Assembly (NCBI GenBank): GCA_003327455.1
Contig: QOQU01000001.1
Coordinates: forward strand, 258,337-322,336
Length of the DNA stretch: 64,000 nt
Direction: 5' to 3'
Origin: Anaerolineae bacterium
GTDB lineage: Bacteria; Chloroflexota; Anaerolineae; Anaerolineales; UBA4823
Part shown: positions 2 through 60,753 of the stretch, piece by piece
Numbering within the stretch: the first letter of the stretch is position 1
How the letters are laid out: every line of letters starts with the position of its first letter
Program-made: the position numbers and the translations under genes
The notes under the pieces: model-generated
What the model saw: the letters and a program-made list of their open reading frames with translations, nothing else
What the model was told of the DNA's origin: nothing
The model's database searches: none

Positions 2-3000
2 GTCCTGGTTTACGATGGCGCTATGGGAACCAATCTGCAGAAGATGAAATTGACCGCTGCACACTTCGGCGGAGAAAAAACGTTTGGCTGCAACGATTAT
101 CTTGTCCTCACTTATCCTGCCGCAGTCGAAGCAGTCCACCGCTCCTTCTTAGAAGTGGGGGTCGATGCGATTGAAACCAATACTTTTCGGTCAAACCGTA
201 TCACGCTGGGTGAATATGGGCTGGCAGAGCGAGTGATTGAAATCAACCGCGCCGCGGCTTCGCTGGCAAGAAGACTGGCGGATGAATACAGCACGGCTGG
301 GCAGCGCCGCTTTGTGGCTGGTTCGATTGGACCTTCGGGGAAATTGCCCTCCGCCGATGACCCCGATCTCTCGAATATCGATTTTGATGAATTGGTAGAT
401 GTTTTTCGCCAACAGGCAGTGGGCTTAATCGAAGGCGGCGTGGATGTCTTGCTGATCGAGACCTCGCAGGATATTTTAGAGGTCAAGGCAGCCATTCTGG
501 GCATTCACGAAGCCTTCCGAGAACTGGGTACACGATTACCCATCCAGGCTCAGGTCACGCTGGACACCAATGGTCGCATGCTGCTGGGCACAGACATTGG
601 GGCGGCGCTGGCGATCCTGGCCGGCATGCAGATTGATGTGATTGGTTTGAACTGCTCCACCGGGCCAGAACACATGCGCCAACCCATCGAATTTCTGGGG
701 AAACACGCGCCCTTGCCCGTGTCCTGTCTGCCCAATGCCGGTTTGCCCTTGAACGTGGACGGAGAAGCCGTTTACCCCCTCGAACCCCAACCCTTCGCGC
801 AGGAGATGCTTGGCTTTGTCGAACGAAATGGCATTCGGGTTGTCGGTGGTTGTTGTGGGACGACGCCTCAACATCTGCAACTGCTGGTGCAGGGTTTACG
901 CGAGAAAGGCTTTCTGGCGCCTCAGGCGCGGTTCTTTCAGGCAGCCACTTTCCCCCCTCATCTGGCTTCAGCGGTTCGGGCGGTTGAAATGCATCAGCAG
1001 CCGCCGCCGTTGCTGATCGGGGAGCGTTGTAACGCCCAGGGCTCACGCCAGTTCAAACGGCTCTTGCTGGAAGAAAATACCGATGCCATCCTCGACCTGG
1101 CTCGCCAGCAGGTAGAGGGCGGCGCACATGCGCTGGATATTTCGGTAGCTCTGACCGAGCGCGCTGATGAAGCCGATACGATGCGCAAAGTGGTCAAACT
1201 TCTGGCAACAGGCGTGGATGTGCCGCTGGTCATAGACACCACCGAACCAGAGGTCATGGAAGTAGCGCTGAAAACCGCTCCGGGCAGATGTTTGCTCAAT
1301 TCCACCCATCTCGAAGGCGGTGAAGCGAAAGCCCGGCGCGTTTTCCAACTGGCAAAAGACTTCAACGCGGCGGTGCTTTGCCTGACCATCGATGAACAGG
1401 GGATGGCAAAAACTGCCCAACGCAAAGTGGAGGTTGCTCGACGCCTCTATCATCTGGCAGTGGAGGAGATCGGTTTAGCCCCAGAGGCGCTGGTCTTTGA
1501 TGCGCTTACGTTTACCCTGGCTACCGGCGATGAGGAATACCGTTACTCAGCGATCGAGACTTTAGAGGGAATTCGTTTGATTAAAGAAAATCTACCCGGC
1601 GTGCTGACCTCCTTAGGTGTCAGCAACCTTTCCTTTGGCCTGGCAGCCAACGCCCGGCCGGTCTTGAACAGTGTGATGCTCTATCACGCGGTTCAGAAGG
1701 GATTGGATATGGCAATTGTCAATCCTGCCCACATCACGCCCTACGCCGAGATCCCTCTGAACGAGCGTGAGCTTGCCGAAGATTTGATCTTTGCCCGCCG
1801 CGAGGATGCCCTCAGCCGTTTGATTGAGTACTTTGCCCAGCAGGCACCAAATGCTCGAATGGGTGAAAAAGACCAGACAGCCGAATTGCTTGGCTCCATG
1901 ACGGCGCAGGAGCGCTTACACTGGAAGGTCGTTCATCGCCATAAAGAGGGGGTTGAAGCGGATATCGACGAAATGATTCAAAATGCCCTGTTGTCTTATC
2001 CCTCACCCCTAACCCCTCCCCCTAAGGGGGAGGGGAATACCCTCCCCCCCTCGCCCTTAGGGAGAGGGGCCGGGGGTGAGGGATTAGAAGGGGTTGAGGG
2101 TGACTTAAAGAAAATCCAACACCAGGCCGCCGTCCAGATCCTCAACCATGTCCTCCTGCCCGCCATGAAAGAAGTAGGAGACAAATTCGGCGCCGGTGAA
2201 CTCATCCTGCCCTTCGTCCTCCAATCCGCTGAAGTCATGAAAAAAGCCGTCAGCCACCTGGAAAACTATCTCGAAAAACAGGAAGGCACGACCAAAGGTA
2301 AGATTGTCCTTGCCACCGTTTACGGCGATGTGCACGACATCGGCAAAAATCTGGTTAAGACCATCCTCTCCAACAACGGCTACACCGTCATCGATTTGGG
2401 CAAACAAGTGCCGGCAGAAACGATCATCTCTACCGCCGTGGAGCAAAAGGCGGATGCCATTGGACTGAGCGCTTTGCTGGTCAGCACTTCCAAACAAATG
2501 CCCCTGATCGTCAACGAACTCCATCGGCGCAGTTTGAAATTCCCCGTCTTAATCGGCGGAGCTGCCATAAATCGGCGCTTTGGCTGGCGGATTTTGTTCA
2601 CCGAAGATCAGAGCGTGTACGAGCCGGGTGTGTTCTATTGCAAGGATGCTTTCGAAGGCCTGGCGGTTATGGACCAGCTCATGCAGCCTGAAAAACGACA
2701 GGCCTTGCTGGAAAAAGTCCGGCAAGACGCCCGGCGGGAGGTTGCCAGACCGCTCCAATCCGACTCAAGGCAAACAACCCAACGACGGTCTACCGTCCTT
2801 CCCAAGCCCTTGCAGCTTCCGCCAGGGGTGCGCTGGGGCAGCCGTGTGGTGCGAGAGATGCCCCTAAGAGCCGTCTTTCAATGCCTGTTCAAGAACGACC
2901 TGTTCCGCCTCTCCTGGGGCGCCAAAAACGCCCATGGGGAAGAATGGGAACGGCTGCACCGCGACTTTGAGCAGCGTCTCGACCTCATGCAACGCCAGGC

Positions 3001-3616
3001 TTTGCAACAGGGGTGGCTCCGCCCTCAAGCAGCTTATGGCTACTGGCCCTGTCAATCCGAAGAAGATGAGCTGATCCTCTACGATCCCGACACCCTGCGC
3101 GCTGAACCCGATGAGTGGGTGGAGTTGATGCGTTTTGCCTTTCCCCGGCAGGAGGACGATGAGCATCTCTGCCTGGCGGATTACTTTGCCAGCCGCGAGA
3201 GCGGTGTAATCGATGTGGTGGCTTTCCAGGTCGTCACCGTGGGGCATGAGGCCACGGAATATTTTGATCGCCTGCAAGCCGAGGGCAACTACACCGAAGC
3301 CTATTTTGTGCATGGGCTGGCGGTTCAAACCGCCGAAGCCGCAGCGGAGTATCTGCATCGCCATATCCGCCGTGAATTAGGCATCCCCGAAGGCCAGGGA
3401 AAGCGCTATTCCTGGGGGTATCCTGCCATTCCAGAATTGGAAGACCACCGCAAAGTGTTCGATCTCTTACCGGTGGAGAAGGAGTTTGGCATGAGCTTAA
3501 CCGCTGCCTTTCAACTCGTCCCGGAACAATCTACAGCGGCAATTATCGTCCATCATCCTCAGGCGAAATATTACGCAGTCGGCGGCAGCCGCGTTGAGCA
3601 GTTGATGAGAGGTTGA
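2..3616 (+). CDS. metH: Cobalamin-dependent methionine synthase, 5'-truncated by the window edge (frame is open from nt 2; the Met at 23 is internal, ..VLVYDGAMGT..)
   Basis: 1197-aa ORF with Hcy-binding (DGAMGT, GGCCGTTP), pterin-binding, B12 cap plus B12-binding (GDVHDIGKN..SALL..GGA) and C-terminal AdoMet-activation regions in canonical order. Confidence 0.95.
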   Translation, partial: VLVYDGAMGTNLQKMKLTAAHFGGEKTFGCNDYLVLTYPAAVEAVHRSFLEVGVDAIETNTFRSNRITLGEYGLAERVIEINRAAASLARRLADEYSTAGQRRFVAGSIGPSGKLPSADDPDLSNIDFDELVDVFRQQAVGLIEGGVDVLLIETSQDILEVKAAILGIHEAFRELGTRLPIQAQVTLDTNGRMLLGTDIGAALAILAGMQIDVIGLNCSTGPEHMRQPIEFLGKHAPLPVSCLPNAGLPLNVDGEAVYPLEPQPFAQEMLGFVERNGIRVVGGCCGTTPQHLQLLVQGLREKGFLAPQARFFQAATFPPHLASAVRAVEMHQQPPPLLIGERCNAQGSRQFKRLLLEENTDAILDLARQQVEGGAHALDISVALTERADEADTMRKVVKLLATGVDVPLVIDTTEPEVMEVALKTAPGRCLLNSTHLEGGEAKARRVFQLAKDFNAAVLCLTIDEQGMAKTAQRKVEVARRLYHLAVEEIGLAPEALVFDALTFTLATGDEEYRYSAIETLEGIRLIKENLPGVLTSLGVSNLSFGLAANARPVLNSVMLYHAVQKGLDMAIVNPAHITPYAEIPLNERELAEDLIFARREDALSRLIEYFAQQAPNARMGEKDQTAELLGSMTAQERLHWKVVHRHKEGVEADIDEMIQNALLSYPSPLTPPPKGEGNTLPPSPLGRGAGGEGLEGVEGDLKKIQHQAAVQILNHVLLPAMKEVGDKFGAGELILPFVLQSAEVMKKAVSHLENYLEKQEGTTKGKIVLATVYGDVHDIGKNLVKTILSNNGYTVIDLGKQVPAETIISTAVEQKADAIGLSALLVSTSKQMPLIVNELHRRSLKFPVLIGGAAINRRFGWRILFTEDQSVYEPGVFYCKDAFEGLAVMDQLMQPEKRQALLEKVRQDARREVARPLQSDSRQTTQRRSTVLPKPLQLPPGVRWGSRVVREMPLRAVFQCLFKNDLFRLSWGAKNAHGEEWERLHRDFEQRLDLMQRQALQQGWLRPQAAYGYWPCQSEEDELILYDPDTLRAEPDEWVELMRFAFPRQEDDEHLCLADYFASRESGVIDVVAFQVVTVGHEATEYFDRLQAEGNYTEAYFVHGLAVQTAEAAAEYLHRHIRRELGIPEGQGKRYSWGYPAIPELEDHRKVFDLLPVEKEFGMSLTAAFQLVPEQSTAAIIVHHPQAKYYAVGGSRVEQLMRG
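1998..2105. repeat. Copy of the dispersed G/C-rich nested-palindrome element lying in-frame inside metH
   Basis: atCCCTCACCCctaaCCCCTCCCCCtaaGGGGGAGGGG...CCCCCTCGCCCttaGGGAGAGGGGccGGGGGTGAGGG has the same architecture as the intergenic units at 6005-6322, 26432-26790, 50650-50850 and 60107-60581. It is translated as SPLTPPPKGEGNTLPPSPLGRGAGGEG. Confidence 0.8.
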
Positions 3617-3619
3617 ACC

Positions 3620-5506
3620 ATGAACTCCTCCCCGACCCTGAAAGACCTGCTGTTGAATGCCGGTGTACCCTTGCTTTCGGATGGAGCAATGGGCACGCAA
3701 CTTCATGCCCGCGGTATAACCTTCGACGAATGCTTTGATGGCTTGAACCTTACCAACCCCGATCTGGTTTTTCAGATTCACTGCGATTACCTCAAGGCCG
3801 GGAGCGATCTCCTTCAAACCAACACCTTCGGGGCAAACCGCTACAAACTTGCCTTGCATGGGTTAGAGAAGGACCTCAGGCGCATAAACCGACAGGGTGT
3901 TCAAATCGCCCGCCAGGCGGCCGGCTCAAGCTCCAGGAAAGTTTTTATTCTCGGCGATATCGGACCGCTGGGGGTTCGGCTGGCGCCTTATGGGCGTGTG
4001 CGACCAGAGCAGGCTCGCCAGGCTTTTCGTGAACAGATCGAAGCGCTGCTCGAAGCCGGGGTAGATGGTATCCTTTTGGAAACCTTTAGCGATCTCCTGG
4101 AGATCCGCGAAGCGATTGAGGCTGCCAAGGCCCTGAGCGACTTGCCGCTGATTGCTTCCATGACCTTTACCCGCGATGACGTGACCCTGTTAGGGGATAC
4201 GCCCGCTCAGGTGGCGCGACAATTGTACGAATACGGGGCAGATCTGATCGGGGTGAATTGTTCTGGCGGTCCAGCCCAGGTCTGGCGCATTCTACGCCAG
4301 ATGGGACAAACGCTGCTGGCGAGCAAGAAAACCTTACCGCCCTTCTCGGCGATGCCCAATGCCGGTTGGCCAGAGCAGGTGGGAGGACGGATCATGTACC
4401 CTGCCAACGCAGCCTATTTTGGCGAGTATGCGCTGGCTTTCTGCGAAGCCGGGGCGCGCCTGGTAGGCGGGTGTTGCGGCACGACCCCTGAGCATATCGC
4501 TGCCATGCGTGCAGCCTTAGATGGTCAAACGGGAGGATGTGCGCCCTCAGTCAGCGAACTCACCCTGCCAATCGAAATTGAGGACGCCAGAGGGGAAGTA
4601 GAAGCGCCCTCCCGCCTGGCGAAGAAACTGGCAGAAGGCAGGTTTGTGATCAGCGTGGAGATGGATCCACCGCGCGGCCTTTCCACCCATAAGCTATTAG
4701 CCGGAGCGAGCTTGCTCAGTGAAGCCGGAGCGGATGTGATTAACATCGCCGATAGCCCCATGGCGCGCATGCGCATGAGCCCCTGGGCGGTTTGTGAGCT
4801 GTTACAACGCACGTTTGACATCGAGACCACGTTGCATTTTCCGACCCGCGGACGTAATCTGCTGCGGGTACAGGGCGATTTGTTGGCTGCCCACGCCCTG
4901 GGCATCCGCAACGTCTTCGTTGTGATGGGCGACCCTACTGCCATTGGCGATTACCCCGACGCCATGGACAACTACGACCTTGTCCCCTCGGGCTTGATCA
5001 AGCTGATCAAACAAAATCTGAACGTTGGGCTCGACCAGGCGGGGGCAGAATTGGGACAGCCAACCCATTTTTTTGTCGGTTGCGCTTTGAATCTCACCCC
5101 AACGGACTTCGGTCAGGAGGCAAAAAACTTACGGCGCAAACTGGAGGCGGGAGCAGACTTTATTCTCACCCAACCCGTCTTTCAACCCCGGCGGGCTGAG
5201 GCTTTTTTACAATTTTATCAGGAGAAATATGGGGAATTGAAAACGCCGCTCTTAGCCGGCGTGTTGCCGCTCTACAGTATTCGGCATGCGCTTTTCCTGC
5301 ATAACGAAGTGCCGGGCATTCAAATCGAAGAGGAAACGCTGGAACGCATCCGCAAAGCAGGCGAAGACGCGCCAGAGGAAGGCATCCGCGTTGCGTTAGA
5401 ACTCATTGAGCAAATGCGCGGCTGGATCAGCGGCATTTACCTGATGCCCGCTTTTCACCGCTACGACATCGCATCGGAAATCATCGAAGCCTGTCGTAAA
5501 TCCTAG
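3620..5506 (+). CDS. yitJ: Bifunctional homocysteine S-methyltransferase / 5,10-methylenetetrahydrofolate reductase (YitJ-like fusion)
   Basis: N-terminal Hcy-binding domain (SDGAMGTQL, GGCCGTTPEHI) fused to an MTHFR-like C-terminal half (ISVEMDPPRG, HFPTRGRN). Start is 4 nt after the metH stop. Confidence 0.85.
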   Translation: MNSSPTLKDLLLNAGVPLLSDGAMGTQLHARGITFDECFDGLNLTNPDLVFQIHCDYLKAGSDLLQTNTFGANRYKLALHGLEKDLRRINRQGVQIARQAAGSSSRKVFILGDIGPLGVRLAPYGRVRPEQARQAFREQIEALLEAGVDGILLETFSDLLEIREAIEAAKALSDLPLIASMTFTRDDVTLLGDTPAQVARQLYEYGADLIGVNCSGGPAQVWRILRQMGQTLLASKKTLPPFSAMPNAGWPEQVGGRIMYPANAAYFGEYALAFCEAGARLVGGCCGTTPEHIAAMRAALDGQTGGCAPSVSELTLPIEIEDARGEVEAPSRLAKKLAEGRFVISVEMDPPRGLSTHKLLAGASLLSEAGADVINIADSPMARMRMSPWAVCELLQRTFDIETTLHFPTRGRNLLRVQGDLLAAHALGIRNVFVVMGDPTAIGDYPDAMDNYDLVPSGLIKLIKQNLNVGLDQAGAELGQPTHFFVGCALNLTPTDFGQEAKNLRRKLEAGADFILTQPVFQPRRAEAFLQFYQEKYGELKTPLLAGVLPLYSIRHALFLHNEVPGIQIEEETLERIRKAGEDAPEEGIRVALELIEQMRGWISGIYLMPAFHRYDIASEIIEACRKS

Positions 5507-5788: not shown

Positions 5789-6004
5789 CAGTCCTCCTGA
5801 GGATATGGGATTTTCTGTGGTCGGGCAATTGCCGCTCAAACCGAAGACCGAGTGCTGCGTCAATCGTGTATCCTGCTCACCTCACCCCCTCTACGTCCTC
5901 TCAGATGAGATCGGCTTACAACGACTCTTGCGCCATCGGTATCTGCTGTATTATAACGCAAGCTCGCGAAAGTTTATGTGAACAGAATTGGCTCTTTTTA
6001 CCCG

Positions 6005-6322
6005 CCCTCATCCCTAACCCCTCTCCCATGGGCGAGGGGAGTTTGATTCCCCTCCCCCTTAGGGGGAGGGCCAGGGTGAGGGATAAGAGCATAAGCGTCC
6101 AGGTGCAGTGGGCGAGGGGAGTTTGCCCTCACCCCCGGCCCCTCTCCCATGGGGAAAGGGGAGTTTGATTCCCTCCTCCTTAGGGGGAGGGCCAGGGTGA
6201 GGGATAAGAGCATAGGCGTCGAGCGGCGGCAGGCAAGGGGAGTTTGCCCTCACCCACAGCCCCTCTCCCATGGGGAGAGGGGAAACCCTCACCCCCATCC
6301 CCTCCCATGGGGAGAGGGGAGA
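6005..6322. repeat. Cluster of G/C-rich nested palindromes ('GEG' element family)
   Basis: Repeated CCCCTCTCCCatggGGAGAGGGG, CCCCTCCCCCttagGGGGAGGG and GGGTGAGGG/CCCTCACCC modules. Both strands translate to PLPxGEG-type pseudo-ORFs. Confidence 0.85.
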
Positions 6323-8804: not shown

Positions 8805-9625
8805 CGCTTTGAATGCCCTGACGGGCGGTGGAGGACTCCACTGGGTGGGAAAGATGGAGGTCTGGATTGGTCTTAATGCCCTAACGGCGGACAAGGGGGA
8901 TTCGGATTTGTTCGGTCGGGACGAGCGAAGCCCAAGGGGCATCATTCGGGCTATTGCGTGCCCCTTCTACTGGGCTAGCAGGCGTCCCGCCTGCTGTTGC
9001 GCATCTCGCACGGCCCCTTCGGTCGGGACGACCGAAGCCCAGCAAGTGCCAGCGACGGGCGGACAAGGATTCGGACCCCAGATTTTCAAGTGCGACGGGC
9101 AACTTCACATTCGTTGTCCGTCTTAATGCCCTAACGGGCGGACAAGGATTCGGACCCCAGATTTTCAAGTGCGACGGGCAACTTCACATTCGTTGTCCGT
9201 CTTAATGCCCTAACGGGCGGACGAGGATTCGGACCCCAGATTTTCAAGTGCGACGGGCAACTTCACATTCGTTGTCCGTCTTAATGCCCTAACGGGCGGA
9301 CAAGGATTCGGACCCCAGATTTTCAAGTGCGACGGGCAACTTCACATTCGTTGTCCGTCTTAATGCCCTAACGGGCGGACAAGGATTCGGACCCATAACG
9401 GCAGTCGCTTTGAGTTCCGCACTGCCGGGCATGGGTCTTAATGCCCTAACGGGCGGACAAGGATTCGGGCTAAAGGGGGGTATGCAATACGTTTTTAACA
9501 AGGGGGTTATCGTGAGTCTTAATGCCCTAACGGGCGGACAAGGATTCGGGCAAATGAAGAGGTATCTGTTCTACCATTACGGAAAATGGTCTTAATGCCC
9601 TAACGGGCGGACAAGGATTCGGGCC
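8805..9625 (-). CRISPR. Orphan CRISPR array. It has 7 intact 36-nt repeats (9120, 9199, 9278, 9357, 9435, 9516, 9590), one 5'-truncated repeat (about 9055-9076) and two degenerate repeats (about 8805-8840, 8870-8906)
   Basis: Repeat GTCTTAATGCCCTAACGGGCGGACAAGGATTCGG(A/G)C with 38-45 nt spacers. Minus-strand reading ends ..GGGCATTAAGAC (ATTGAAAC-like handle), and the degenerate repeats lie at the left end, so a minus orientation with the leader at about 9626-9760 is proposed (orientation confidence about 0.5). No cas ORF in the window. Confidence 0.9.
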
Positions 9626-12068: not shown

Positions 12069-13772
12069 TCACGGCACGTAAACGGGCAAAGTCAACACCT
12101 GATAGCTTTCGCCAACGCGCCGGACGATAAAGTCAAACTGACTGAGCGGCGGAAAATCTTCGACTTCTTCTCCACAACAGGGACCTAGAACGAACAACGA
12201 CCCATCCGGGTTTTGCAGTTCGACCGTAAAACGGAACTCATCCGCCGAGATCTGCGCTGCCTGCACCCAGTTTTTCACCGTCAGGTTACAGACAAAGCCA
12301 TTCTGCTGACAGGCTCTTGTCCACAGGGTGAGCGAATCATCAGCCTTAACGTCCGGGTTCATCTCCATCAGCCATTGATAATCACCGCCGTAAAGGCTGA
12401 CCACCTGCGAATAATCCCCCTTGTTCAGGGCATCCAGATAGGCGATCAGGGTCTGTCTGGCTGCTTGGGTTGCGGCGGGGTCCTGCACCTGGCGAGCCTG
12501 GTCGGCAAGCTCTTGCACCAACTGCAGAATGCCCTCTTGTTCCTCCTGGCTGGCTGTTTGCTGCCCTATGCCATTGAAGACAAGCCGCAAGATCATGCCA
12601 TCGGCGGCGCCCGAATCACCCTGATTGATCTCAAACGGCAGGTAAGTATCCAGCCAGCGAAAGACCTCCTGCATTTGCGCGGCGGTAAGATATACCTTCT
12701 GGACGCCGAGTTGTTGCGCAGGACGGCAAGAACTGATTTCAACTCTGCCAGTTCGAGAAATCACCATGTCCTCACAAAACCCTGCCAGACCGCCCTCGCG
12801 GTGAAAGGCAAGCACGGCGGCGGGCTTCATTCCTGCTTGAGGGTCGTGCTCCATCCAGACCTGACGCGCCCATTCGGCAAGCATTCGCTGCTCGGCTGGC
12901 GTGGCGGTGACTGCACCACGCCCTTGAAAGCTAAGCCATCCGGCCGGCGTTTGTGCTTCAAACGGGGCATAGGTTTGGACGAATCTCTCGATTTCCTGGC
13001 GCACTTCTCGCCCGACCAGAGGAACTGAAATCAAAGGCTGGTCGCAGACGCCATAAGACAGGGCTTCTTCACCGAGAACGACGGTTTGACAAAGGCCTCC
13101 TTCGTCTCCCTGCCAGCGCAAGAGCGGCGCGCCGCCTTCCAGATTGGGTTGCAGGGCTAAGCGAACATCGCTGCCGCTCAGATCGGTATGGAATTCATAG
13201 CGCTTTCCCTGCGCTTCGAGCAGGACGCGAAACCCAGGGGTAATCACCTGAGCGCACATCAGCCCGGCGCTCTGGATGCCAAGACAGGCATCTGGCCACT
13301 CCACCTTTTCAACATTGAGAATGCGAACCTCTTCCGGCGAGATGCCCAGCCGGGCCGCCAGCACCTGTTGGGCAGAGAGAGCAGCACCTGGTAAGAATCG
13401 CACGATGGAGCCATCTTCGCTCACCCGAAATTCGTATTGCAGTCCCTCTCCCAGGAGAATACCCTGATAGCCCGGCACGATCAGCTCAGCACAGGCTTCG
13501 CCCTCTTGCTCTAACCCCAAACAGCTATTGGGGAACTGGCGCGCTTCTACCGAAAACACCTCCAGTTGTTCAACCGCCACACCAAGTTGTTGGGCTAAGG
13601 TTTGACGGGCAGCCTGTACAGCCGGAATTGAAACAGAGACCGTTGCCGACGGCGGTTGGGAGGGAGGTACTTCTCCCAGGTTGGGCGTCGGTGCAGCGCT
13701 GGGGGTACAGGCAACGGTGAAAGCGGTGAAAATCAGGACAATCATGAACCAAAAGGGACGCGGGCAATTCAT
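12069..13772 (-). CDS. Putative lipoprotein with two copies of a roughly 75-aa Cys-pair domain, unknown function (start moved to MNCPRPF)
   Basis: Signal/lipobox FTAFTVAC. Internal repeat ..FPNSCLGLEQEGEACAELIVPGYQ..YEFR / ..WPDACLGIQSAGLMCAQVITPGFR..YEFH. Confidence 0.6.
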   Translation of the reverse strand: MNCPRPFWFMIVLIFTAFTVACTPSAAPTPNLGEVPPSQPPSATVSVSIPAVQAARQTLAQQLGVAVEQLEVFSVEARQFPNSCLGLEQEGEACAELIVPGYQGILLGEGLQYEFRVSEDGSIVRFLPGAALSAQQVLAARLGISPEEVRILNVEKVEWPDACLGIQSAGLMCAQVITPGFRVLLEAQGKRYEFHTDLSGSDVRLALQPNLEGGAPLLRWQGDEGGLCQTVVLGEEALSYGVCDQPLISVPLVGREVRQEIERFVQTYAPFEAQTPAGWLSFQGRGAVTATPAEQRMLAEWARQVWMEHDPQAGMKPAAVLAFHREGGLAGFCEDMVISRTGRVEISSCRPAQQLGVQKVYLTAAQMQEVFRWLDTYLPFEINQGDSGAADGMILRLVFNGIGQQTASQEEQEGILQLVQELADQARQVQDPAATQAARQTLIAYLDALNKGDYSQVVSLYGGDYQWLMEMNPDVKADDSLTLWTRACQQNGFVCNLTVKNWVQAAQISADEFRFTVELQNPDGSLFVLGPCCGEEVEDFPPLSQFDFIVRRVGESYQVLTLPVYVP

Positions 13773-21850: not shown

Positions 21851-22579
21851 TCAACAGCCAGCTTTTTCAGCCACAATGATCACATTCGGCGAAAAGCGTT
21901 CGAGGGGTTTCTGATCAAAGCTGCCGAAGGTCGCTTGAATGCGAAAGCCAGCGTGCTCGAATTCGCCGAGCAGGAGGCTTACATCCTCCAGCGCATACTT
22001 CTGGCGATAGACGAAGCGCTGCACTTCGCCGTTGGGAAATAGTTGATCGTATCTCCACTCCACCTCGAGCCAGCCTGACTGGCGCTGCCAGGTGGTCAGG
22101 ACCTGGACCGGGTTATCGGACTGCGGATGGAGAAAAATCTCTTCCAGTTCGGCTTCCACCTTCGGTGGCAGAGTCTGGAGCAGGGCAGGGTTTGGGAAGC
22201 TCACCCCGAAGGCGCCTCCGATTTGCAAGCTCTGCCAGACATTGCTCAAAATTGCCCGGCGTTGTGGAGCGTCAAAGGTGGAATAGGTATTACAGGGCAA
22301 CAGCGCGAGCCGAAAGCCAGAAGCAAGCCCCAGGTGTCTCATATCGGCACAAAAAACATTTGCCGCCCCGCGCTGCTGCAGATAGCGCAGCATACTCAAA
22401 TCCAGATCGAAGCCAAATACCCGCAAGCCGCTATTCTGTAACGCATGATAGACTCGCCCGGTGCCGCAACCCATCTCCAGGACAGGTTCACCATAACGGC
22501 GAGCCAGTTCGAGGAAAAAGGGTATATCCTCGCTATAGCTGGCGTGATGGGCATGAAATAAGGGTGGAAAGCGATTCAC
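21851..22579 (-). CDS. Class I SAM-dependent methyltransferase
   Basis: Motif I VLEMGCGTGRV, motif II VFGFDLD. Confidence 0.8.
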   Translation of the reverse strand: MNRFPPLFHAHHASYSEDIPFFLELARRYGEPVLEMGCGTGRVYHALQNSGLRVFGFDLDLSMLRYLQQRGAANVFCADMRHLGLASGFRLALLPCNTYSTFDAPQRRAILSNVWQSLQIGGAFGVSFPNPALLQTLPPKVEAELEEIFLHPQSDNPVQVLTTWQRQSGWLEVEWRYDQLFPNGEVQRFVYRQKYALEDVSLLLGEFEHAGFRIQATFGSFDQKPLERFSPNVIIVAEKAGC

Positions 22580-22637: not shown

Positions 22638-22714
22638 CGGGGTGTGGCGCAGTACGGTAGCGCACCGCGTTTGGGACGCGGGGGTCGGCGGTTCAAGTCC
22701 GCCCGCCCCGACCT
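22638..22714 (+). tRNA. tRNA-Pro (anticodon TGG)
   Basis: Hand-folded cloverleaf: acceptor CGGGGTG/CGCCCCG, D stem GCGC/GCGC, anticodon stem CCGCG/CGCGG with loop TTTGGGA, T stem GGCGG/CCGCC. Confidence 0.9.
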
Positions 22715-23715: not shown

Positions 23716-24093
23716 TTATTCCTGGTCGGTAAGGGTTGATGCGTTTTGGGTTAGTTCATGGGTGAGTTCTTTCAGGATGTTGGTGAGGGGGTTTTGTTCT
23801 TCTCGCCGGCGAGTTTCGATGATGGATTGGGTGTTGTAGATGCGGGCGATCGAAAGGGTTATTTTCAGCATGGTGTCGATGTAGGTTAAAAGGGTTTCCT
23901 GGCTGATATTGGATGATTTCAGTTCTGCCATGATTCTTCTCCCGATTACTCTAAGGGCGTTTATTTCGGATTTTAGGGTTTCATCCAGGTTGTCAAGGTC
24001 GGCTCTTTCCAGTTGTCTAAATGCGCGGGCATAATAGCCATGTTTGAGGGCATTTAAGTTTCCTCTCGGCGCGCCTCTGTGTTTGTGATCCAT
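23716..24093 (-). CDS. 125-aa protein with an N-terminal GAPRGNLNALKHGYY motif, unknown function
   Basis: I associate the GAPxGNxNAxKHG motif with small phage/plasmid-borne proteins. This rests on memory only, with no homology search. Confidence 0.45.
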   Translation of the reverse strand: MDHKHRGAPRGNLNALKHGYYARAFRQLERADLDNLDETLKSEINALRVIGRRIMAELKSSNISQETLLTYIDTMLKITLSIARIYNTQSIIETRRREEQNPLTNILKELTHELTQNASTLTDQE

Positions 24094-24956: not shown

Positions 24957-25000
24957 ACAGGTGGCTTCTCTCTATGCCCTTGATGGTTGCCATCCCATCG

Positions 25001-25187
25001 GGGGCATTTTCAATCTAACGACAATTTACCCACCGTGGGCATTTTCAATCTAACGACAATTTACCCAGCTGGGGCATTTTCAATCTAACGACAATTTACC
25101 CAGCTGGGGCATTTTCAATCTAACGACAATTTACCCACCGGTGGCATTTTCAATCTAACGACAATTTTCCCACAGGGAAAATTGTCG
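25001..25187. repeat. Five exact-period 35-bp tandem repeats (GGCATTTTCAATCTAACGACAATTTACCCA + 5 variable nt) ending in a 13-bp perfect hairpin CGACAATTTTCCC-aca-GGGAAAATTGTCG
   Basis: Unit starts at 25004, 25039, 25074, 25109 and 25144. Hairpin 25159-25187 followed by GTTCATTTTA. Confidence 0.9.
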
Positions 25188-25708
25188 GTTCATTTTAGAT
25201 AAAAACGCCCCAACCTTGCCCAAGCCGAACACGAAGTCGGATAAAGAGGTTATTTTAGCTTTTCTTATCTGAGTGGTTTTTTCAACCTTGCCCAAGCTAC
25301 GGCTGGGCAAGGCGTAAGTTTTGCCCCTAATCCCCCTATCCCGCCCCCCCATGTTAGACTTTCCTTGCTGGGGTGTGGGGGTTGGGTGGGGGGGCTTGGG
25401 GGGGCGGGAGGGGGAGGGGCAAAATTGGGGCGTGGTTCATTCTTCCAGGGGGTTTGTCAGGTGGGAAGGGGCTAGTTTTCCAGGTGAGGGCGGTCGTTCG
25501 GTTCGCATGGCTGAGCAAACGGACTATAACCCGGTCGTGTCAGGCGTTTTTGTTCAAGGGGCTATTGCATGACCTGATAACCTTTGCATTAAGTGCCTCT
25601 GTGTTTGCGCCAGCAGGTTTTGCCTGGGCATTTTCAGGCGTGGGCTGGGCGGCGCGGTTTCTTTTCCTTGTTTCTACGCCGGCGGTTGTTGAAAACGATT
25701 ATCATTAT

Positions 25709-25993
25709 CAGGAAGAGAAAGAATAAAATTGTAAAGTCCATGTCGCACGTCATGAAAACGAATTTCATTATCAATATCTTTATTCGGAGACAAGCTTCAT
25801 TTAACTTGTTTCTGCTCGAAGCCAAATACGCGCAAGCCGCTATTCTGTAACGCATGATAGACTCGCCCGGTGCCGCAACCCATCTCCGAACGTTTTTTCC
25901 GTCATTGTTCGCTTCATTTAACTTGTTTTCATCCCGGCTTTAGGACGCGGGGGTCGGCGGTTCAAGTCCGCCCGCAACTCACGCAAGCAACCC
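25709..25993. other. Collinear micro-copy of the upstream chromosome: four short blocks identical to 20944-20979, 22407-22478, 22674-22706 and 22762-22776
   Basis: Blocks at 25709-25744 (36/36), 25816-25887 (71/72), 25943-25975 (33/33) and 25979-25993 (15/15), same order and orientation. The linkers contain GCTTCATTTAACTTGTTT twice. Confidence 0.85.
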
Positions 25994-26100
25994 TGTTTTC
26001 GCTTGCTTTCCCTGGCCCTCTGGGGGTGGGTGGGTGGGGGGTGGTGGCGGTGCTTTGCTCGATGCCGGCGTTCTCGCATGTTCGCTTCTTTCTGCTGGCT

Positions 26101-26220
26101 TTGCTTGCTCAATGTCTGGCTACGATTCGGTCCGCGGTGAATGCTTGCTCAATGTCGATCTACGATTCGGTTCTCGGTGAATGCTTGCTCGGTGTCGATC
26201 TACGATTCGGTTCTCGGTGG
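26101..26220. repeat. 3 x 40-bp tandem repeat (TGCTTGCTCAATGTCGATCTACGATTCGGTTCTCGGTGAA)
   Basis: Copies start at 26101, 26141 and 26181. Confidence 0.85.
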
Positions 26221-26431
26221 TTGTTTAATTGGTGTGGCTTAACAAGAATAAAAGCGAATCCGGGTTTGGGTTAGTGGGGGAATGGCGGTTCAAGTCCGCC
26301 CGCCCCGACCTTCTGGGGGCATAAAACGATCGGTTGCGAAAGTGCGACTCCCATTTATTGTGTTTTTACTGCAAAAGCCTTAAATGGGCTGCTCCCCTTG
26401 CCCACCGAAACACCCAAACGCCTATGTCCTT

Positions 26432-26790
26432 ATCCCTCACCCTGACCCTCTCCCTGAGGGAGAGGGAACCTGACTCCCCTCGCCCATTGGGAGAGGGGTT
26501 GGAGGTGAGGGCATTCTCCAATCCCTCACCCTGGCCTTCTCCCTGAGGGATAGAGAACTTGACTCCCCTCGCCCATTGGGAGAGGGGTTGGAGGTGAGGG
26601 CATTTTCCAATCCCTCACCCTGGCCTTCTCCCTGAGGGAGAGAGAACTCAACTCCCCTCGCCCATTGGGAGAGGGGTTGGAGGTGAGGGCATTTTCCAAT
26701 CCCTCACCCTGGCCCTCTCCCTGAGGAATAGAGAACTTGACTCCCCTCGCCCATTGGGAGAGGGGTTGGAGGTGAGGGGGATAAGCCCTT
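26432..26790. repeat. 4 x 89-bp tandem array of the complete 'GEG' nested-palindrome unit
   Basis: Unit atCCCTCACCCtggCCCTCTCCCtgaGGGAGAGGGaac..CTCCCCTCGCCCattGGGAGAGGGGttGGAGGTGAGGGcatt. Copies start at 26432, 26521, 26610 and 26699. Confidence 0.9.
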
Positions 26791-32418: not shown

Positions 32419-32805
32419 GTACCTGGGCCTGCGGACGCCCCGTCTGAGCAATCACTCTAGCACACAACCCCCCTGGGCCTGCGGACGTCTCGTCCGCTAG
32501 CAATGCATCCGAGACGGATGCGGCCCAGCGGATAGCGGATGAGGGGGATAATGGCATGTACCTGGGCCTGCGGACGCCCCGTCCGCTCTTAACGGTGCAT
32601 CCGAGATGCGGGCCCAGCGGATAGCGGATGAGGGGGATAATGGCACGTACTGGGCCTGCGGACGCCCCGTCCGCTCTTAACGATGCATCCGAGACGGATG
32701 CGGCCCAGCGGATAGCGGATGAGGGGGATAATGGCACGTACTGGGCTTGCGGACGTCCCGTCCGCTCTTAACGATGCATCCGAGACGGATGCGGACCCAG
32801 TGGGT
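32419..32805. repeat. About 4.5 tandem copies of a roughly 90-bp unit carrying two hairpins (GCGGACG-ccc-CGTCCGC and GCATCCG-aga-CGGATGC); REP/BIME-like
   Basis: Unit starts at 32419 (partial), about 32471, 32558, 32647 and 32738. It ends 10 nt from the RAYT fragment. Confidence 0.85.
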
Positions 32806-32815
32806 GAGTCTTCAG

Positions 32816-33075
32816 CTATGCGTTCCTGGCAGTCTCAGCAGCGCTTGACCAGGGCCAGTCCTGCGCAGCAGCAACCAGCCCGGCTTTGACTGGATTCTGG
32901 TGGATGTATTCCACAACGGCTTTAAAGTGCTTTTGGTCGCGAATAAATCGATCGAAATAATCGGGCATCCAAAAGTCGCCTGTTCGATCAAGCAGCTTGT
33001 TGGCTTCGTGGGCAATGTAAGATTTCCAACTGTGGATCACTTTCGAGAGGGAATGGCCTAAGGGGGCTTTGCCGT
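32816..33075 (-). pseudogene. 5'-truncated REP-associated tyrosine transposase (RAYT, IS200/IS605 Y1 family) fragment
   Basis: FWMPDYFDRFIRDQKHFKAVVEYIHQNPVKAGLVAAAQDWPWSS matches the conserved RAYT C-terminus (WQPRFWEHxIR...YIxxNPVKxGxV..DWPxS). The N-terminal HUH half is absent because the neighbouring gene ends at 33079. Confidence 0.75.
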
Positions 33076-50619: not shown

Positions 50620-50649
50620 AACGGGAGTCAGGGGAGCGAACAGGCTTCA

Positions 50650-50850
50650 ACCCCCAGCCTCTCTCTCAGCGGGCGAGGGGAATTTGCTCCCTTCTCCCTT
50701 AGGGAGAAGGGCTGGGGATGAGGGATAAGGGCACAGGCGTCCAGGGGCCTGGGCGGGCGATAGAGGAAGCCCTCACTTTCAACCCCTCTCCCATGGGGAG
50801 AGGGGAGATGGATTCCCTCTCCCTTAGGGAGAGGGCCAGGGTGAGGGATA
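50650..50850. repeat. 'GEG' nested-palindrome elements (about 2 units)
   Basis: CCCCTCTCCCatggGGAGAGGGG, CCCTCTCCCttaGGGAGAGGG, GGGTGAGGG modules. Confidence 0.85.
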
Positions 50851-50884
50851 AAGCTCAAGACCTCTCGGATAATATTCGATTCCC

Positions 50885-55183: not shown

Positions 55184-57382
55184 TTATCCTCCTCCGCCGG
55201 TGGTTGGGCGTGGGGTGCGCGTCGGGGTTGGAGTGGGCGTGCGAGTCGCCTGGGGCGGCGGCTGTGTCCAGGTCGCCGTGGGGGTATTGGTGATCAGCGG
55301 TGTTTCGGTCGGGGTTGGCGTGCGGGTGGGCGTGCGCGTTGGGGTAGTGGTGCGCGTGGGTGTGTTGGTTGGGGTGGGAGTCAGTGAGGGTTTGGGTGTC
55401 ACGGTCGGGGTGAGCGTGATGGTGGGGGTGAGCGTCACGGTGGGTGTCCGCGTCGGAGTCAAAGTAATGGTCGGCGTAGAGGTGCGGGTCGGCGTGCGCG
55501 TAATCGTGGGAGTCAGGGTGATCGTTGAGGTGGGCGTGATCGTTGGCGTACGGGTCGACGTGCGCGTGATGGTTGGGGTGAGCGTGCGGGTCGGTGTGGG
55601 CGTGATGGTCGGGGTGAAGGTAATGGTCGGGGTGCGCGTGATGGTGGGGGTGAGCGTGATGGTTGGCGTGCGCGTAATGGTCGGGGTAGGGGTGATGGTG
55701 CGGGTGGGAGTGCGGGTAGGTGTCAAAATGTACACATTAAAGATGCGCACCACGCGAGTGTAATGGTAGAGAGGATTGCCATCCCGATCGAGAGCCTGGA
55801 TGCTGATCGAATACGTTCCATTTTGAATTGTTTGCGTACTGTTCGGCCAGCGATCGCCCAGTGTGCGAGTCGTGCAATTCGCTCCCGATTGTCCAAAGAG
55901 GCAATACGGGGCAGCGGTATCCGTCTGGTACCCCACCACACTGCCCAGTTGATTGCGCACCACGAAGTACACCTGTTCAATTTGTCCATCGGGGTCAACG
56001 GCTGAGGCCGAAATCGAAAATGGCCCGCTGATCGGATTGGCGGGCAGGGTGGGCTGCACCACCGGCCCGTAGCGACCGATCAGGTTAACCGGTGGGCAGT
56101 CAATGCGCACCTGCTCATCCGGCGAGACCATCTGGTAGTTCAATGTGGTGGTGAAATCGCGCCCGTGATAATAGCTGTAATCGAAGGTTTGCGAAAAATT
56201 CAAACCAAACCAGGTGGTCACGTTGGGCAACAACGTCCAGACATCGCCGCTGAAGCCGCTGTGAGCGACGTTAAAGCCGGGCAGCAGGGGGACATCTGGG
56301 CGGTCATCGATCAGCGCAGATTCACGCGTATAACCCTGGAAGACTTTTGCAGGCGGCGTGGGGGTCAATTCATCGTGCCAGCCGCCGCTCCAGCTCGAGT
56401 TCATCCCGCTCAGGGCAGCGCTGTAATAGGGGTCATTGTTGCGGATATCAAAGGCGACGTCGAAATGATCCAGTCCGTAATTCCAGACTTCAACCTGATT
56501 ACAATCTGCGGTAGGCGTCGGACTGGGGGTAAAGGTAGAGGTAGGCGTAGGTGAGGGGGTAGGGGTGTTGGTTGGGCTGGGTGAGGGCGTCGGACTTTGG
56601 GTTGGGGTTGGACTCTCGGTTGGAGTAGGCGTCTCGCTGGGGGTAGGGGTATTGGTTGGGGTGCGGGTGAAATAGATCGAGATGTCCGGAGGTAATCCCA
56701 GCACGCGGGCGACACGGAACTGTTCCAGAATGCCCGAGCGTTCTGCTCGCAGACGTAAGCTGGGCCAGAGATTGCTCAGGAACGGCAGGATTAAGGGATG
56801 TTGAAAGGTCACCGAAACGATCACCCGCGTTTGACCCTCTTCGGGGTTGCCTGGATCGTCTTCGAACGCGTCGCTGACGATATTGCGACAACGACCATTG
56901 GGACGATCAAAGGCGTAACCGCTGCGCGTGCTGCACACCGAGACCAGCAGATAGCCGGGGGTTTGTTCCCCTTCGGGGGGCGTGCCCATCAAGAAGCCAC
57001 GCACAATATCCTCGTAATAAGCCACCGGGATGGAGCCGGTCTGGTTGAGGACTTCATCATAAATCGAGAGCAGGCGGGCATGGTCTTCTTCGGCGATCCT
57101 GGCTGCCCCGGCACAGGGGCCATCCACCCCCTGGGCGTCCGGACCATCATCGGTGTCCTCACAGTATTCGGGTTTGTATTCGCCGGTCACCGCATAACGC
57201 ACCCCAAAGCGGGCCGCATTGCTGATCACCAGGTAGGACTGATAGACGCGCGCAAACTCGATAATGCCAAAGATCGTCAATAACAGGATCGGCAGCACCA
57301 GGGCAAACTCGGTGATTGCCTGACCGCGTCGCCGCTGTCGCCTGTGGGTTGAAAAGAAGAGAGAAGCGTTTTGTCTATCCAT
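55184..57382 (-). CDS. Giant TadE-like pseudopilin: N-terminal TadE motif, about 350-aa globular region and two Thr/Pro-rich repeat tracts
   Basis: [29 protein letters not shown] (G/XXXXEF prepilin-type site); C-terminal about 190 aa of [12 protein letters not shown] hexapeptide repeats. Confidence 0.7.
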
Positions 57383-60106: not shown

Positions 60107-60283
60107 GGAGAGGGAATCAAACTCCCCTCGTCCAACGGGAGAGGGGCTGGGGGTGAGGGCATTCTCCCCTCGCCTCGTGGGAGAGGGGTTGGGGGTGAGG
60201 GCACTATCCCCTCGCCCAGCAGGAGAGGGGTCGGGGGTGAGGGTTTCCCCTCGCTCAACGGGCGAGGGGGCGGGGGTAAGGGC
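60107..60283. repeat. 'GEG' elements: about 4 tandem half-units CCCCTCGCCCnnnnGGGAGAGGGGnnGGGGGTGAGGG
   Basis: Read directly, period about 46 bp. Confidence 0.85.
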
Positions 60284-60378
60284 TGCTCCCCCAGGTTAGC
60301 CTGCAAGGCTTTCACGGATTCAGGCAGGGCTTCAGCCCACCGAAAAGGTCACCCATCGCACCTGGACGCCTGGGTTCT

Positions 60379-60581
60379 TATCCCTCACCCTAACCCTCTC
60401 CCTAATGGAGAGGGAATCCATCTCCCCTCGCCCTGTGGGAGAGGGGGCGGGGGTGAGGGTCTCTTCCCTCGCCCTATGGGAGAGAAGACGGGGGTGAGGG
60501 TTTCCCCTCGCCCCATGGGAGAGGGGCCGGGGGTGAGGGCACTTTCCCCTCGCCCAACGGGCGAGGGGAGGGGGGTGAGGG
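60379..60581. repeat. 'GEG' elements: one full unit plus about 3 half-units
   Basis: atCCCTCACCCtaaCCCTCTCCCtaatGGAGAGGG... followed by repeated CCCTCGCCCnnnGGGAGAGnnnnGGGGGTGAGGG. Confidence 0.85.
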
Positions 60582-60753
60582 CTTCGTCGCGTGGCAGAGG
60601 GGTAAATTCGGGGGTAAGTGCTTCCTCAGGCGAGGAGGAGTGACGGCGATCTGAATGCGGGCGCAAACCCGCAAGGGTTGGGGCGGGCAGAGGCAGGGCT
60701 CTAGCCCGCCGTGAGAGTCAAGGAGATGTCTCGCACCAGGCAGTTGCGATCGC

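Follow-up and report, generated by a model that had tools for sequence, protein, structure and literature searches.

Triplex-type repeat modules of the BoxC / PIT / TM-ECO family in an Anaerolineae genome and their association with DUF559 nuclease genes

Introduction

What is the repeat array at positions 26432-26790 of this stretch of DNA, to which family do its units belong, and which enzyme could have spread them? The stretch, hereafter the window, comprises 64,000 nucleotides of contig QOQU01000001.1 (assembly GCA_003327455.1) from an Anaerolineae bacterium, whose methionine synthase, MetH, groups with those of Anaerolineales, phylum Chloroflexota. A first-pass annotation of the window saw in the array a dispersed nested palindrome resembling repetitive extragenic palindromic (REP) sequences or miniature inverted-repeat transposable elements (MITEs), and considered a truncated REP-associated tyrosine transposase (RAYT) at 32816 as its possible mobiliser. 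Judged by their sequence, the array modules belong to the known BoxC / PIT / TM-ECO family and are not a new element. Modules of this family are strongly associated, as element-specific inverted terminal repeats, with genes encoding a DUF559 (YcjD-family) nuclease, in elements of about 0.5 kb. With this feature, a known repeat family gains a member in a new host phylum, in unusual array forms and with one copy in frame within a protein gene.

Results

Identity and anatomy of the modules

Although the repeats had at first been taken for a REP-like family not recognised as a known repeat, a full-text search on the stem halves identified them as BoxC / PIT / TM-ECO; a literature search on GGGTGAGGG alone returned telomere papers only. 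BoxC was reportedly described by Bergler in 1992 and by Bachellier in the 1990s. According to Holder et al. 2015 (NAR 43:10126, PMC4666352), one element has carried three names, BoxC (1990s), PIT, for potential intrastrand triplex (Hoyne and Maher 2000), and TM-ECO, and its consensus is 5'-CCCTCNCCC N3-6 GGGNGAGGG N3 GGGNGAGGG; these authors counted 23 motifs in Escherichia coli K-12 and 3610 in 262 proteobacterial genomes, and found related G/C-rich motifs to be abundant in cyanobacteria. The same study reports that the commonest E. coli type, "A mm", has a CCCTCGCCC/GGGAGAGGG mismatch and that five K-12 sites are inverted pairs of a TTA-loop type and a CCG-loop type (PMC4666352). The window and E. 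coli are alike in the G/A mismatch variant and in the inverted pairing of two loop-2 types (types A and B). Exact matches to the consensus occur three times in the window (at 6050, 26434 and 50815; 0 expected), and between the minus-strand module at 26434-26466, CCCTCTCCCTCAGGGAGAGGGTCAGGGTGAGGG, and E. coli TM-ECO no. 17 there are differences at 2 positions.

The half-unit has three arms. Arm 1 is a pyrimidine arm of 9-10 nt, (C)CCCTC[T/G]CCC, arm 2 is the complementary purine arm GGGAGAGGG(G), which follows a loop of 3-4 nt, and arm 3 is the G-rich GGGTGAGGG, 2-5 nt beyond the purine arm. This third arm complements nothing within the half-unit and is a mirror image of arm 2, with G facing each G of arm 2 and A or T facing each A. 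Each 89-bp unit of the array is an inverted pair, in which one triplex module on the minus strand (type CCCTCTCCC TCA GGGAGAGGG TCA GGGTGAGGG) is followed by one on the plus strand (CCCCTCGCCC ATT GGGAGAGGGG TT GGAGGTGAGGG), and CATTTTCCAAT joins successive units. Of the outer pair and two inner hairpins described by the first-pass annotation, the inner hairpins are real and represent the two pyrimidine/purine stems, but the supposed outer pair, CCCTCACCC...GGGTGAGGG, is better understood as one third strand from each of two triplex motifs in inverted orientation. The 89-bp units pair a module whose second loop is TCA, CCA or TTA with one whose second loop is G-rich. Most plus-strand modules are 10-triad versions with NNG as loop 2, and most have the conserved mismatch of CCCTCGCCC opposite GGGAGAGGG; G occupies the mismatch position of the pyrimidine arm in 11 of the 16 plus-strand modules (8 with exact CCCTCGCCC and 3 with one-base variants).

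For 26432-26778, Tandem Repeats Finder reports a period of 89, 3.9 copies, 94% matches and 0% indels, and copy 1 shares 95% identity with copies 2 and 3. The array is thus exact in its period, as had been stated, but not perfect in sequence, its copies being only 94-95% identical. Within the window, GGGTGAGGG was observed 21 times against 0.79 expected and GGGAGAGGG 23 times against 0.94 expected, and each of these counts was reached in 0 of 100 shuffles. A tolerant pattern, allowing at most one substitution per arm and a second loop of 2-6 nt, recovered 23 modules, 7 on the minus strand and 16 on the plus strand. The proposal of a dispersed modular family with conserved stems and variable loops is therefore borne out, with at least 23 modules at six confirmed loci (Table 1) where seven places had been claimed, and the half-unit tandems have a period of 41-42 bp by Tandem Repeats Finder, not about 46 bp. 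Isolated matches at 13444 and 56579 are single 9-mers, and the GGGTGAGGG match at 56579 arises from an 18-nt repeat coding region that is unrelated to the triplex modules. This 6-codon periodic repeat (55266-55727 and 56504-56663) is G-rich on the plus strand and lies in a minus-strand open reading frame (ORF) of 732 aa at 55184-57382.

The nested palindrome folds as the first-pass annotation described, with a z-score of -5.5 for the array as RNA and a weaker one, -2.0, for a single unit as DNA. A first count of triad covariation by a loose regular expression was dominated by mis-registered matches and uninformative, and was replaced by counts anchored on perfect 9-bp pyrimidine/purine hairpins, in which the downstream arm was then scored. 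The third arm is compatible with purine-motif triads (G.G-C, A.A-T and T.A-T, with the third arm antiparallel to the purine arm) at 9/9 positions in all canonical modules, and a minority of modules score 8/9. Under the same scoring, variant purine arms come with matching third arms (GGAGAAGGG with GGGATGAGG, GGGGAAGGG with GGGATGGGG, GGGGGAAGG with GGAAGGGGG, AAGAGGGGA with AGGGGAGTT and AAGGGGAGG with GGAGGGGTT), and in the window copy at 50690 all three arms are altered together (CCTTCTCCC / GGGAGAAGG / GGATGAGGG). A module on single-stranded or supercoiled DNA could form a hairpin that, with its third arm, makes a purine-motif intrastrand triplex; the folding computed for the window modules is that of the hairpin alone. 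An E. coli oligonucleotide does form a stable purine-motif triplex in vitro (PMC4666352).

The purine arm and the third arm together (GGGAGAGGGGnnGGGGGTGAGGG) contain four G-tracts and fit G3+N1-7 repeated four times, and one might suppose that a G-quadruplex is selected here and not a triplex or hairpin. We consider this extremely improbable. The purine arm is never without its complementary pyrimidine arm, which covaries with it, the third arm follows the purine arm at its A/T positions, and the variant in Picosynechococcus PCC 7002, CCCCC AGAAT GGGGG TCA GGGGG, has only two G-tracts. Lineage variants with two G-tracts around DUF559 genes keep the three-arm plan and cannot form an intramolecular G-quadruplex, and this reading was set aside.

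A breadth scan with the exact sequence GGGAGAGGGGNNGGRGGTGAGGG, which has 21 specified bases, in one genome per species matched at least 120 genome-contig stretches from many phyla. Among the matches listed are Chloroflexota, Planctomycetota, Acidobacteriota, Armatimonadota, Cyanobacteria, Alpha-, Beta- and Gammaproteobacteria, Nitrospirota, Bacteroidota and others, and many of those listed contain a complete inverted pair. At least 120 viral contigs also match. Rfam gave nothing at the gathering score in the window, the best score around the array being 26 bits against a threshold of 80. Weak matches to BjrC80, a small RNA of Bradyrhizobiaceae, were seen at 26488-26654 (minus strand) and 26556-26715 (plus strand) with 22-26 bits, also against a gathering score of 80; the BjrC80 family might itself be built of similar repeats.

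DUF559 genes between inverted modules

Three homologues of the window's MetH (P0035, P0069 and P0090) have a Pfam DUF559 / PF18741 domain in the very linker that holds the window's copy, with module-encoded peptides on either side. Among loci collected by the module sequence, DUF559 lies between a plus-strand and a minus-strand module in several unrelated genomes, and it stands in frame inside the host gene in a methionyl-tRNA synthetase (MetRS) and a leucyl-tRNA synthetase (LeuRS) locus (L009 and L086). As an independent test, metagenome contigs were scanned with DUF559 peptide patterns only (5 sequences), which gave 80 loci. Of these, 53 of 77 had a module upstream and 54 of 75 had one downstream, in each case within 250 nt, and 43 of 72 had modules on both sides. 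The background, from 32 modules in 221 kb of far flanks of the same contigs, is 0.04 per search window. Upstream modules were mostly on the plus strand (46) and downstream modules mostly on the minus strand (46).

The two modules of one element also resemble each other. Loop 1 is identical in 26% of comparisons between the two modules of one element vs 1.5% between elements, the whole module is identical in 8.6% vs 0.1%, and rare stem variants are shared by both sides of one element (L254 and L309). Measured from the DUF559 domain match, the modules end at a median distance of 35 nt on the upstream side and 23 nt on the downstream side, so that the element is about 0.5 kb long. Matches to the DUF559 profile include PDB 3HRL (E = 2e-35) and, in I-Bth0305I, the catalytic domain (3R3P, E = 1e-5), and the E, D, H and D residues of DUF559 are invariant in 13 of 13 aligned sequences, the in-frame ones included. 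Modules around DUF559 are also present in isolates, namely Azospirillum lipoferum 4B, Pseudanabaena ABRG5-3, Picosynechococcus PCC 7002 (plasmid pAQ6), Deinococcus proteolyticus and Sphingomonas; the module variants of these isolates, which come from four phyla, are specific to their lineages.

At 24 of the 80 DUF559 loci, the open frame runs on past the DUF559 match by more than 120 aa on one side or both, and Pfam analysis of 20 of these 24 found flanking host domains in 16. The hosts include MetH, a HrpA-like helicase (between the DEAD and Helicase_C domains), MetRS (before tRNA_bind), ThiC, HsdS (between target-recognition domains), LplA/LipB, a Mur ligase, restriction enzymes of MmeI type and type ISP, and chorismate synthase (AroC), the domain of which is in two parts. 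A typical pair of junction peptides is ...SPSPxGRGxGxEG...[DUF559]...TPxPLPxGEG..., and MetRS genes from four sources are interrupted at one point, just before the C-terminal tRNA-binding domain. In-frame DUF559 domains between Pro/Gly linkers were seen at L009, L086, L248, L254, L255, L259, L261, L262, L264, L265, L268, L274, L277, L322 and L325. Orthologues of MetH have, at one site, either modules alone or modules and DUF559, and in P0069 the DUF559 domain is flanked on each side by whole module pairs in direct orientation. Recombination between such direct pairs would, we speculate, leave one outward-facing pair, as in the metH gene of the window.

In the literature searched, which takes in few subscription journals, we found no link between DUF559 or YcjD and BoxC or TM repeats, and the BoxC / PIT / TM repeats are treated there as orphans lacking a mobility gene. 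"DUF559 domain-containing protein" is, however, 14-fold enriched among predicted targets of programmed inversion (PMC9881135), an enrichment that would follow from flanking inverted repeats. In three HsdS loci (type I restriction S subunits; L253, L257 and L266), DUF559 and inverted modules lie beside the target-recognition domain; this gene class is known for programmed inversions, and inverted modules could promote shuffling there.

The ycjD gene and module abundance in E. coli

In E. coli K-12, TM-ECO no. 9 lies 167 bp past the 3' end of ycjD, the DUF559 gene of this genome, next to fabI. BoxC was reportedly first described from this locus. The assignment of the strains below to phylogroups is ours. 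Strains of phylogroups A, B1 and C (K-12, BL21, W, 55989, IAI1, O104:H4 and APEC O78) have 13-30 modules per genome, those of phylogroup E (O157 and O55) 10-11, those of phylogroups D and F (042, SMS-3-5, IAI39 and CE10) 6-13 and those of phylogroup B2 (CFT073, UTI89, IHE3034 and E2348/69) 0-2. These counts are taken from Table S7 of Holder et al. (PMC4666352). A 2026 study places ycjD in the fabI-sapF interval in phylogroups A, B1 and C and in sequence types ST69 and ST182, and the eefRABCD operon in this interval of other E. coli (PMC12817139); consistent with this study, 3346 of 5426 E. coli genomes match the K-12 arrangement at fabI-ycjD-sapF. Module abundance in E. coli tracks the presence of ycjD.

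In about 2080 of the 5426 genomes, homology to K-12 is lost 43 nt before the BoxC beside ycjD (L247, 1349000-1353000). In the one O157:H7 genome examined (L357), the eef efflux operon is found there, and the other genomes sampled break at the same point. This BoxC thus borders on a segment in which phylogroups differ. The polymorphism was also considered as a guide to the ends of the element and was rejected for this purpose, the alternative allele being the eef operon and not an empty site.

Instability between strains and the copy in metH

In contigs from other samples, locus B measures 262, 303, 342 or 426 nt beside a DUF4870 protein of 100% identity, which supports the suggestion that the elements are unstable between strains. 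The differences are whole modules of 41-42 nt and an 81-nt indel with its ends inside hairpins, so that strains gain or lose whole modules with breakpoints inside the repeats. The array (locus C) and loci D, E and F are of unchanged length in the few contigs that span them (three contigs for locus D), and all four array copies are also present in a contig of another strain, L001. Many contigs end within the arrays. Similarly, motif loci in E. coli show more rearrangement among strains than control loci (PMC4666352).

Both strands of the repeats read open, as the first-pass annotation had noted, and one copy lies within a real gene, metH, whose product (P0001, 1221 aa, beginning before the window) retains S-methyl_trans, Pterin_bind, B12-binding_2, B12-binding and Met_synt_B12 domains. 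This copy is translated in frame as ...YPSPLTPPPKGEGNTLPPSPLGRGAGGEGLEGVEGD... in the methionine synthase linker, the inverted pair giving the peptide YPSPLTPPPKGEGNTLPPSPLGRGAGGEG. Presence or absence among relatives is evident at this site: most MetH homologues of 70-73% identity have no insert in the linker, and relatives of 83-88% identity have one to four modules. Directly after metH, at 3620-5506, lies a gene that fuses homocysteine S-methyltransferase and methylenetetrahydrofolate reductase domains.

These observations bear on the idea that the hairpins are kept because they benefit the host, as terminators, mRNA stabilisers or regulatory structures. Most copies indeed lie in 3' or intra-operon intergenic regions (five of the six window loci are intergenic), the array folds strongly as RNA, and the genome paper of Enterobacter sp. 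638, which counted 100 such hairpins, suggested that they are terminators. Nevertheless, we find a host signal very unlikely, as no T-tract follows the stems, a terminator and promoter scan of the array found nothing in the repeats, no Rfam family comes near its threshold, copy number differs between strains with identical neighbour genes, copies lie in frame in proteins, and a terminator would not need the mirror rule of the third arm. No host function need be assumed for the modules.

The RAYT fragment and a second hairpin

The RAYT named as possible mobiliser is genuine but incomplete. The 74-aa ORF at 32816-33040 matches positions 76-146 of the 146 of NCBIfam REP_Tyr_transpos (E = 8e-17) and E. 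coli TnpA-REP (PDB 4ER8, E = 4e-7), with no Pfam match; it represents the C-terminal half of the protein only and lacks the N-terminal HUH half. It adjoins a different hairpin, GGGCCTGCGGACGCCCCGTCCGC, which within the window is confined to 32425-32765 and is the likelier cognate REP of this fragment. An intact RAYT flanked by the triplex units is thus not present in the window. In four other samples, the contigs (L003-L006) stop at the 91-bp array formed by this hairpin or not more than about 35 bp from it (window positions 32765-32835).

The REP reading, in which the modules would be REPs, or their inverted doublets (REPINs), mobilised by a RAYT (an HUH Y1 transposase) such as the truncated one at 32816, has in its favour that the repeats are hairpin-based, dispersed and found as singlets, inverted doublets and arrays, and that the window holds a real RAYT fragment. 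REPs are lineage-specific. The modules, however, have an identical sequence in many phyla, and no GTAG or GTGG head was seen in the copies read, where T/C-rich bases precede the modules and GGGTGAGGG follows. Moreover, the RAYT fragment without its HUH half is flanked by five copies of an unrelated hairpin that occurs nowhere else in the window, and the gene that is flanked by modules is DUF559. We regard this reading as already largely refuted and highly improbable.

Other repeats in the window

Tandem arrays of 35-91 bp are unusually abundant in the window. An unrelated 79-bp array (ACGGGCGGACAAGGATTCGGACCCC...) at 9055-9394 has 4.3 copies of 99% identity, and seven copies of its 42-nt core reach, in degenerate form, to 9627. 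Upstream of the triplex array, a tRNA-Pro gene (22638-22713) is followed by about 3.6 kb, to 26303, that are absent from L001, where an intact tRNA-Pro directly adjoins the array region. The 3' half of this tRNA recurs twice, at 25934-25975 and at 26262-26303, and the stretch 22407-22478 recurs at 25816-25887. The region has the appearance of one or two small insertions at the 3' end of the tRNA; an integrase was not recognised in it, and its ORFs at 23716-24093, 25373-25726 and 25870-26274 have no Pfam match. It also holds two unrelated minisatellites, at 24994-25177 (35 bp x 5.3; copies differ mainly in 3 bases inside CCCAnnnnGGGG) and at 26102-26219 (40 bp x 3).

Table 1. Triplex-module loci of the window, with the host gene of the in-frame copy and two neighbouring features outside the family
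Feature	Coordinates	Strand	Structure	Setting or evidence
metH, host gene of the in-frame copy	23-3616	+	all five domains intact	
One inverted pair and degenerate tail	1998-2105	+	modules 2000-2034 (-), 2040-2082 (+)	in metH linker
Locus B	6004-6322		two 121-bp composite units (- module, + module, 43-nt spacer), then two more - strand modules: 6005-6038 (-), 6050-6082 (+), 6126-6160 (-), 6171-6203 (+), 6247-6281 (-), 6286-6320 (-, degenerate)	adjoins stop codon of DUF4870 gene at 6324
Array of four head-to-tail 89-bp units (locus C)	26432-26520, 26521-26609, 26610-26698, 26699-26790		four inverted pairs	between tRNA-Pro 3' remnant and 3' end of M20 peptidase gene; sequence read
Locus D	50644-50854		two composite units about 125 bp apart: + modules 50690-50724, 50815-50847; degenerate - strand partners	between sortase / 76-aa ORF and AI-2E transporter gene
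Locus E	60107-60291	+	four head-to-tail modules, 42-bp period: 60125-60159, 60167-60201, 60209-60243, 60248-60282	intergenic, inside tad pilus operon
Locus F	60379-60586		- module 60382-60414, then four + modules, 41-42-bp period: 60425-60459, 60466-60500 (degenerate), 60505-60539, 60547-60581	intergenic, inside tad pilus operon
91-bp tandem array x 3.6; not part of triplex family	32425-32800	+	five copies of hairpin GGGCCTGCGGACGCCCCGTCCGC	
RAYT fragment, C-terminal half; not part of triplex family	32816-33040	-		NCBIfam, PDB matches

Discussion

Taken together, these results make it probable that the array is a local amplification of modules of the BoxC / PIT / TM family, which is strongly associated with DUF559 elements. 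The copies in the window are probably nuclease-less derivatives or solo ends of such elements. Seeding probably occurs when the DUF559 nuclease breaks DNA at the structured repeat and the break is repaired from another copy, and slippage or unequal recombination would multiply modules locally into the 89-bp, 121-bp and 41-42-bp arrays. A wider proposal is that BoxC/triplex repeats in general go back to a pan-bacterial, selfish DUF559 element of about 0.5 kb, as its terminal inverted repeats and as derivatives that lack the gene, and that its nuclease acts on the structured repeat and thereby spreads and maintains the population; we put this forward tentatively, at somewhat less than an even chance. 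With the same reserve, and by analogy, DUF559 may be the sole gene of this element, a Vsr-like nuclease related to homing endonucleases with a role like that of RAYTs for REPINs. In such an element, in-frame lodging without splicing in MetH, MetRS, LeuRS, HrpA and AroC would be possible because the repeats read open as Pro/Gly-rich linkers.

An alternative is that the modules are landing pads: they would spread by another route or arise by slippage, and DUF559 homing genes would merely target pairs of them as homology arms. The relation of DUF559 to a homing endonuclease, the lack of a detected target-site duplication, an excess of modules over DUF559 genes of about 30 to 1 or more, the 1-13 modules that E. 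coli strains of phylogroups B2, E, D and F still hold without ycjD, and the variation of module-only arrays by whole units all agree with it. We nevertheless think it unlikely. It leaves unexplained why 21 specified bases are common to many phyla and how modules arrive at new sites, for example in protein linkers; element-specific loops shared by left and right modules fit carried ends at least as well, and the highest module numbers are found where a DUF559 gene is present.

Several observations weigh against the view that the modules are ends of DUF559 elements. That DUF559 acts on the modules at all we infer from their association in sequence. On a given side, the module is missing in about a quarter of DUF559 loci; of 240 loci seeded on modules, only 8 contain DUF559; and the E. 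coli correlation is based on few independent lineages. Neither tblastn nor hmmsearch with --max found a DUF559 gene or remnant in the 64-kb window; the inter-module spacers of the window show no similarity to DUF559 elements elsewhere and match the same species only; and the solitary pairs of the window have their third strands outward (minus then plus), whereas DUF559 is usually bracketed inward (plus then minus). A check for target-site duplications at DUF559 elements found none (longest shared string 2.89 vs 2.75 in controls), in a test that, with the exact element ends undefined, could overlook a short one. Around the E. coli copies, transposase or integrase remnants were "never found" (PMC4666352). 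As for the structure itself, some modules violate the mirror rule, such as the one at 6050, where CCCTCCCCC / GGGGGAGGG retains GGGTGAGGG, and triplex formation by these motifs has been demonstrated in vitro only, for the E. coli sequence.

The array alone is a further instance of a described repeat, and the main effect of this study on it is a corrected label and a corrected enzyme. The BoxC/triplex repeats, however, have had no known origin since the 1990s, and the DUF559 nuclease provides a testable candidate as their enzyme partner, the link to this one small nuclease family being drawn from statistics, matched ends, in-frame insertions in essential genes and the E. coli correlation. The question of what spreads BoxC becomes testable in E. 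coli K-12, where a single ycjD gene accompanies 23 repeats. In practical terms, the modules produce false ORFs and broken assemblies, and through them annotated enzymes, MetH and aminoacyl-tRNA synthetases among them, acquire nuclease domains or Pro/Gly segments.

How do these modules compare with known systems? They are closest to BoxC/PIT/TM-ECO itself, with which they share the three-arm module of nearly identical sequence, the CCCTCGCCC/GGGAGAGGG mismatch variant, the occurrence as singlets and inverted pairs of two loop-2 types, the dispersed and mostly intergenic distribution and the link to local rearrangement between strains. The window differs in its host, a member of Chloroflexota, whereas Holder et al. 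list 262 proteobacterial genomes and cyanobacteria; in its stems, usually of 10 triads with the additional triad at the loop-2 end; in the orientation of its solitary pairs, mostly with third strands outward, whereas four of five E. coli pairs face inward; in its long head-to-tail arrays (4 x 89, 2-3 x 121 and 4 x 41-42 bp); and in the copy translated inside metH, the E. coli motif being "always located intergenically" (PMC4666352). Holder et al. reported no associated mobility gene, and the association with DUF559 is found in the present analysis.

With REP/REPIN and RAYT systems the modules have in common that short structured repeats occur as singlets, inverted doublets and clusters, that the repeats vastly outnumber a usually single-copy gene of nuclease type which is itself flanked by repeats, and that repeat abundance in E. 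coli tracks the presence of this gene. The candidate enzyme is, however, a Vsr-like PD-(D/E)XK nuclease and not an HUH tyrosine transposase, and the modules lack a GTAG head, have a third mirror arm and keep the same sequence across phyla. The description of a propagating REP/MITE-like element accordingly holds in so far as the element is dispersed, unstable, non-autonomous and more numerous than any enzyme gene, but not as to the enzyme. The likeness to MITEs and their autonomous parents lies in terminal inverted repeats of about 36-40 bp with element-specific loops, shared with a coding parent (DUF559) of about 0.5 kb, and in many gene-less derivatives; unlike in MITEs, there is no DDE or serine/tyrosine transposase, no target-site duplication was seen, and no gene relic was found in the gene-less copies of the window.

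More loosely, the DUF559 elements resemble the homing endonuclease I-Bth0305I and inteins, as selfish nuclease modules inside essential genes at conserved sites, but they have no intron or intein scaffold and no splicing, and DUF559 is simply translated as a domain within the host protein, framed by Pro/Gly-rich linkers that the repeats encode. Rickettsia palindromic elements are likewise palindromic repeats in frame within protein genes, translated at tolerant sites; their sequence is unrelated, and they are not known to have an associated enzyme gene or to occur outside Rickettsia. Finally, pneumococcal BOX elements are similarly modular, with one head module followed by variable tandem copies of a second module, as at 60379-60586, but their sequence is unrelated and they lack the mirror rule of the third arm.

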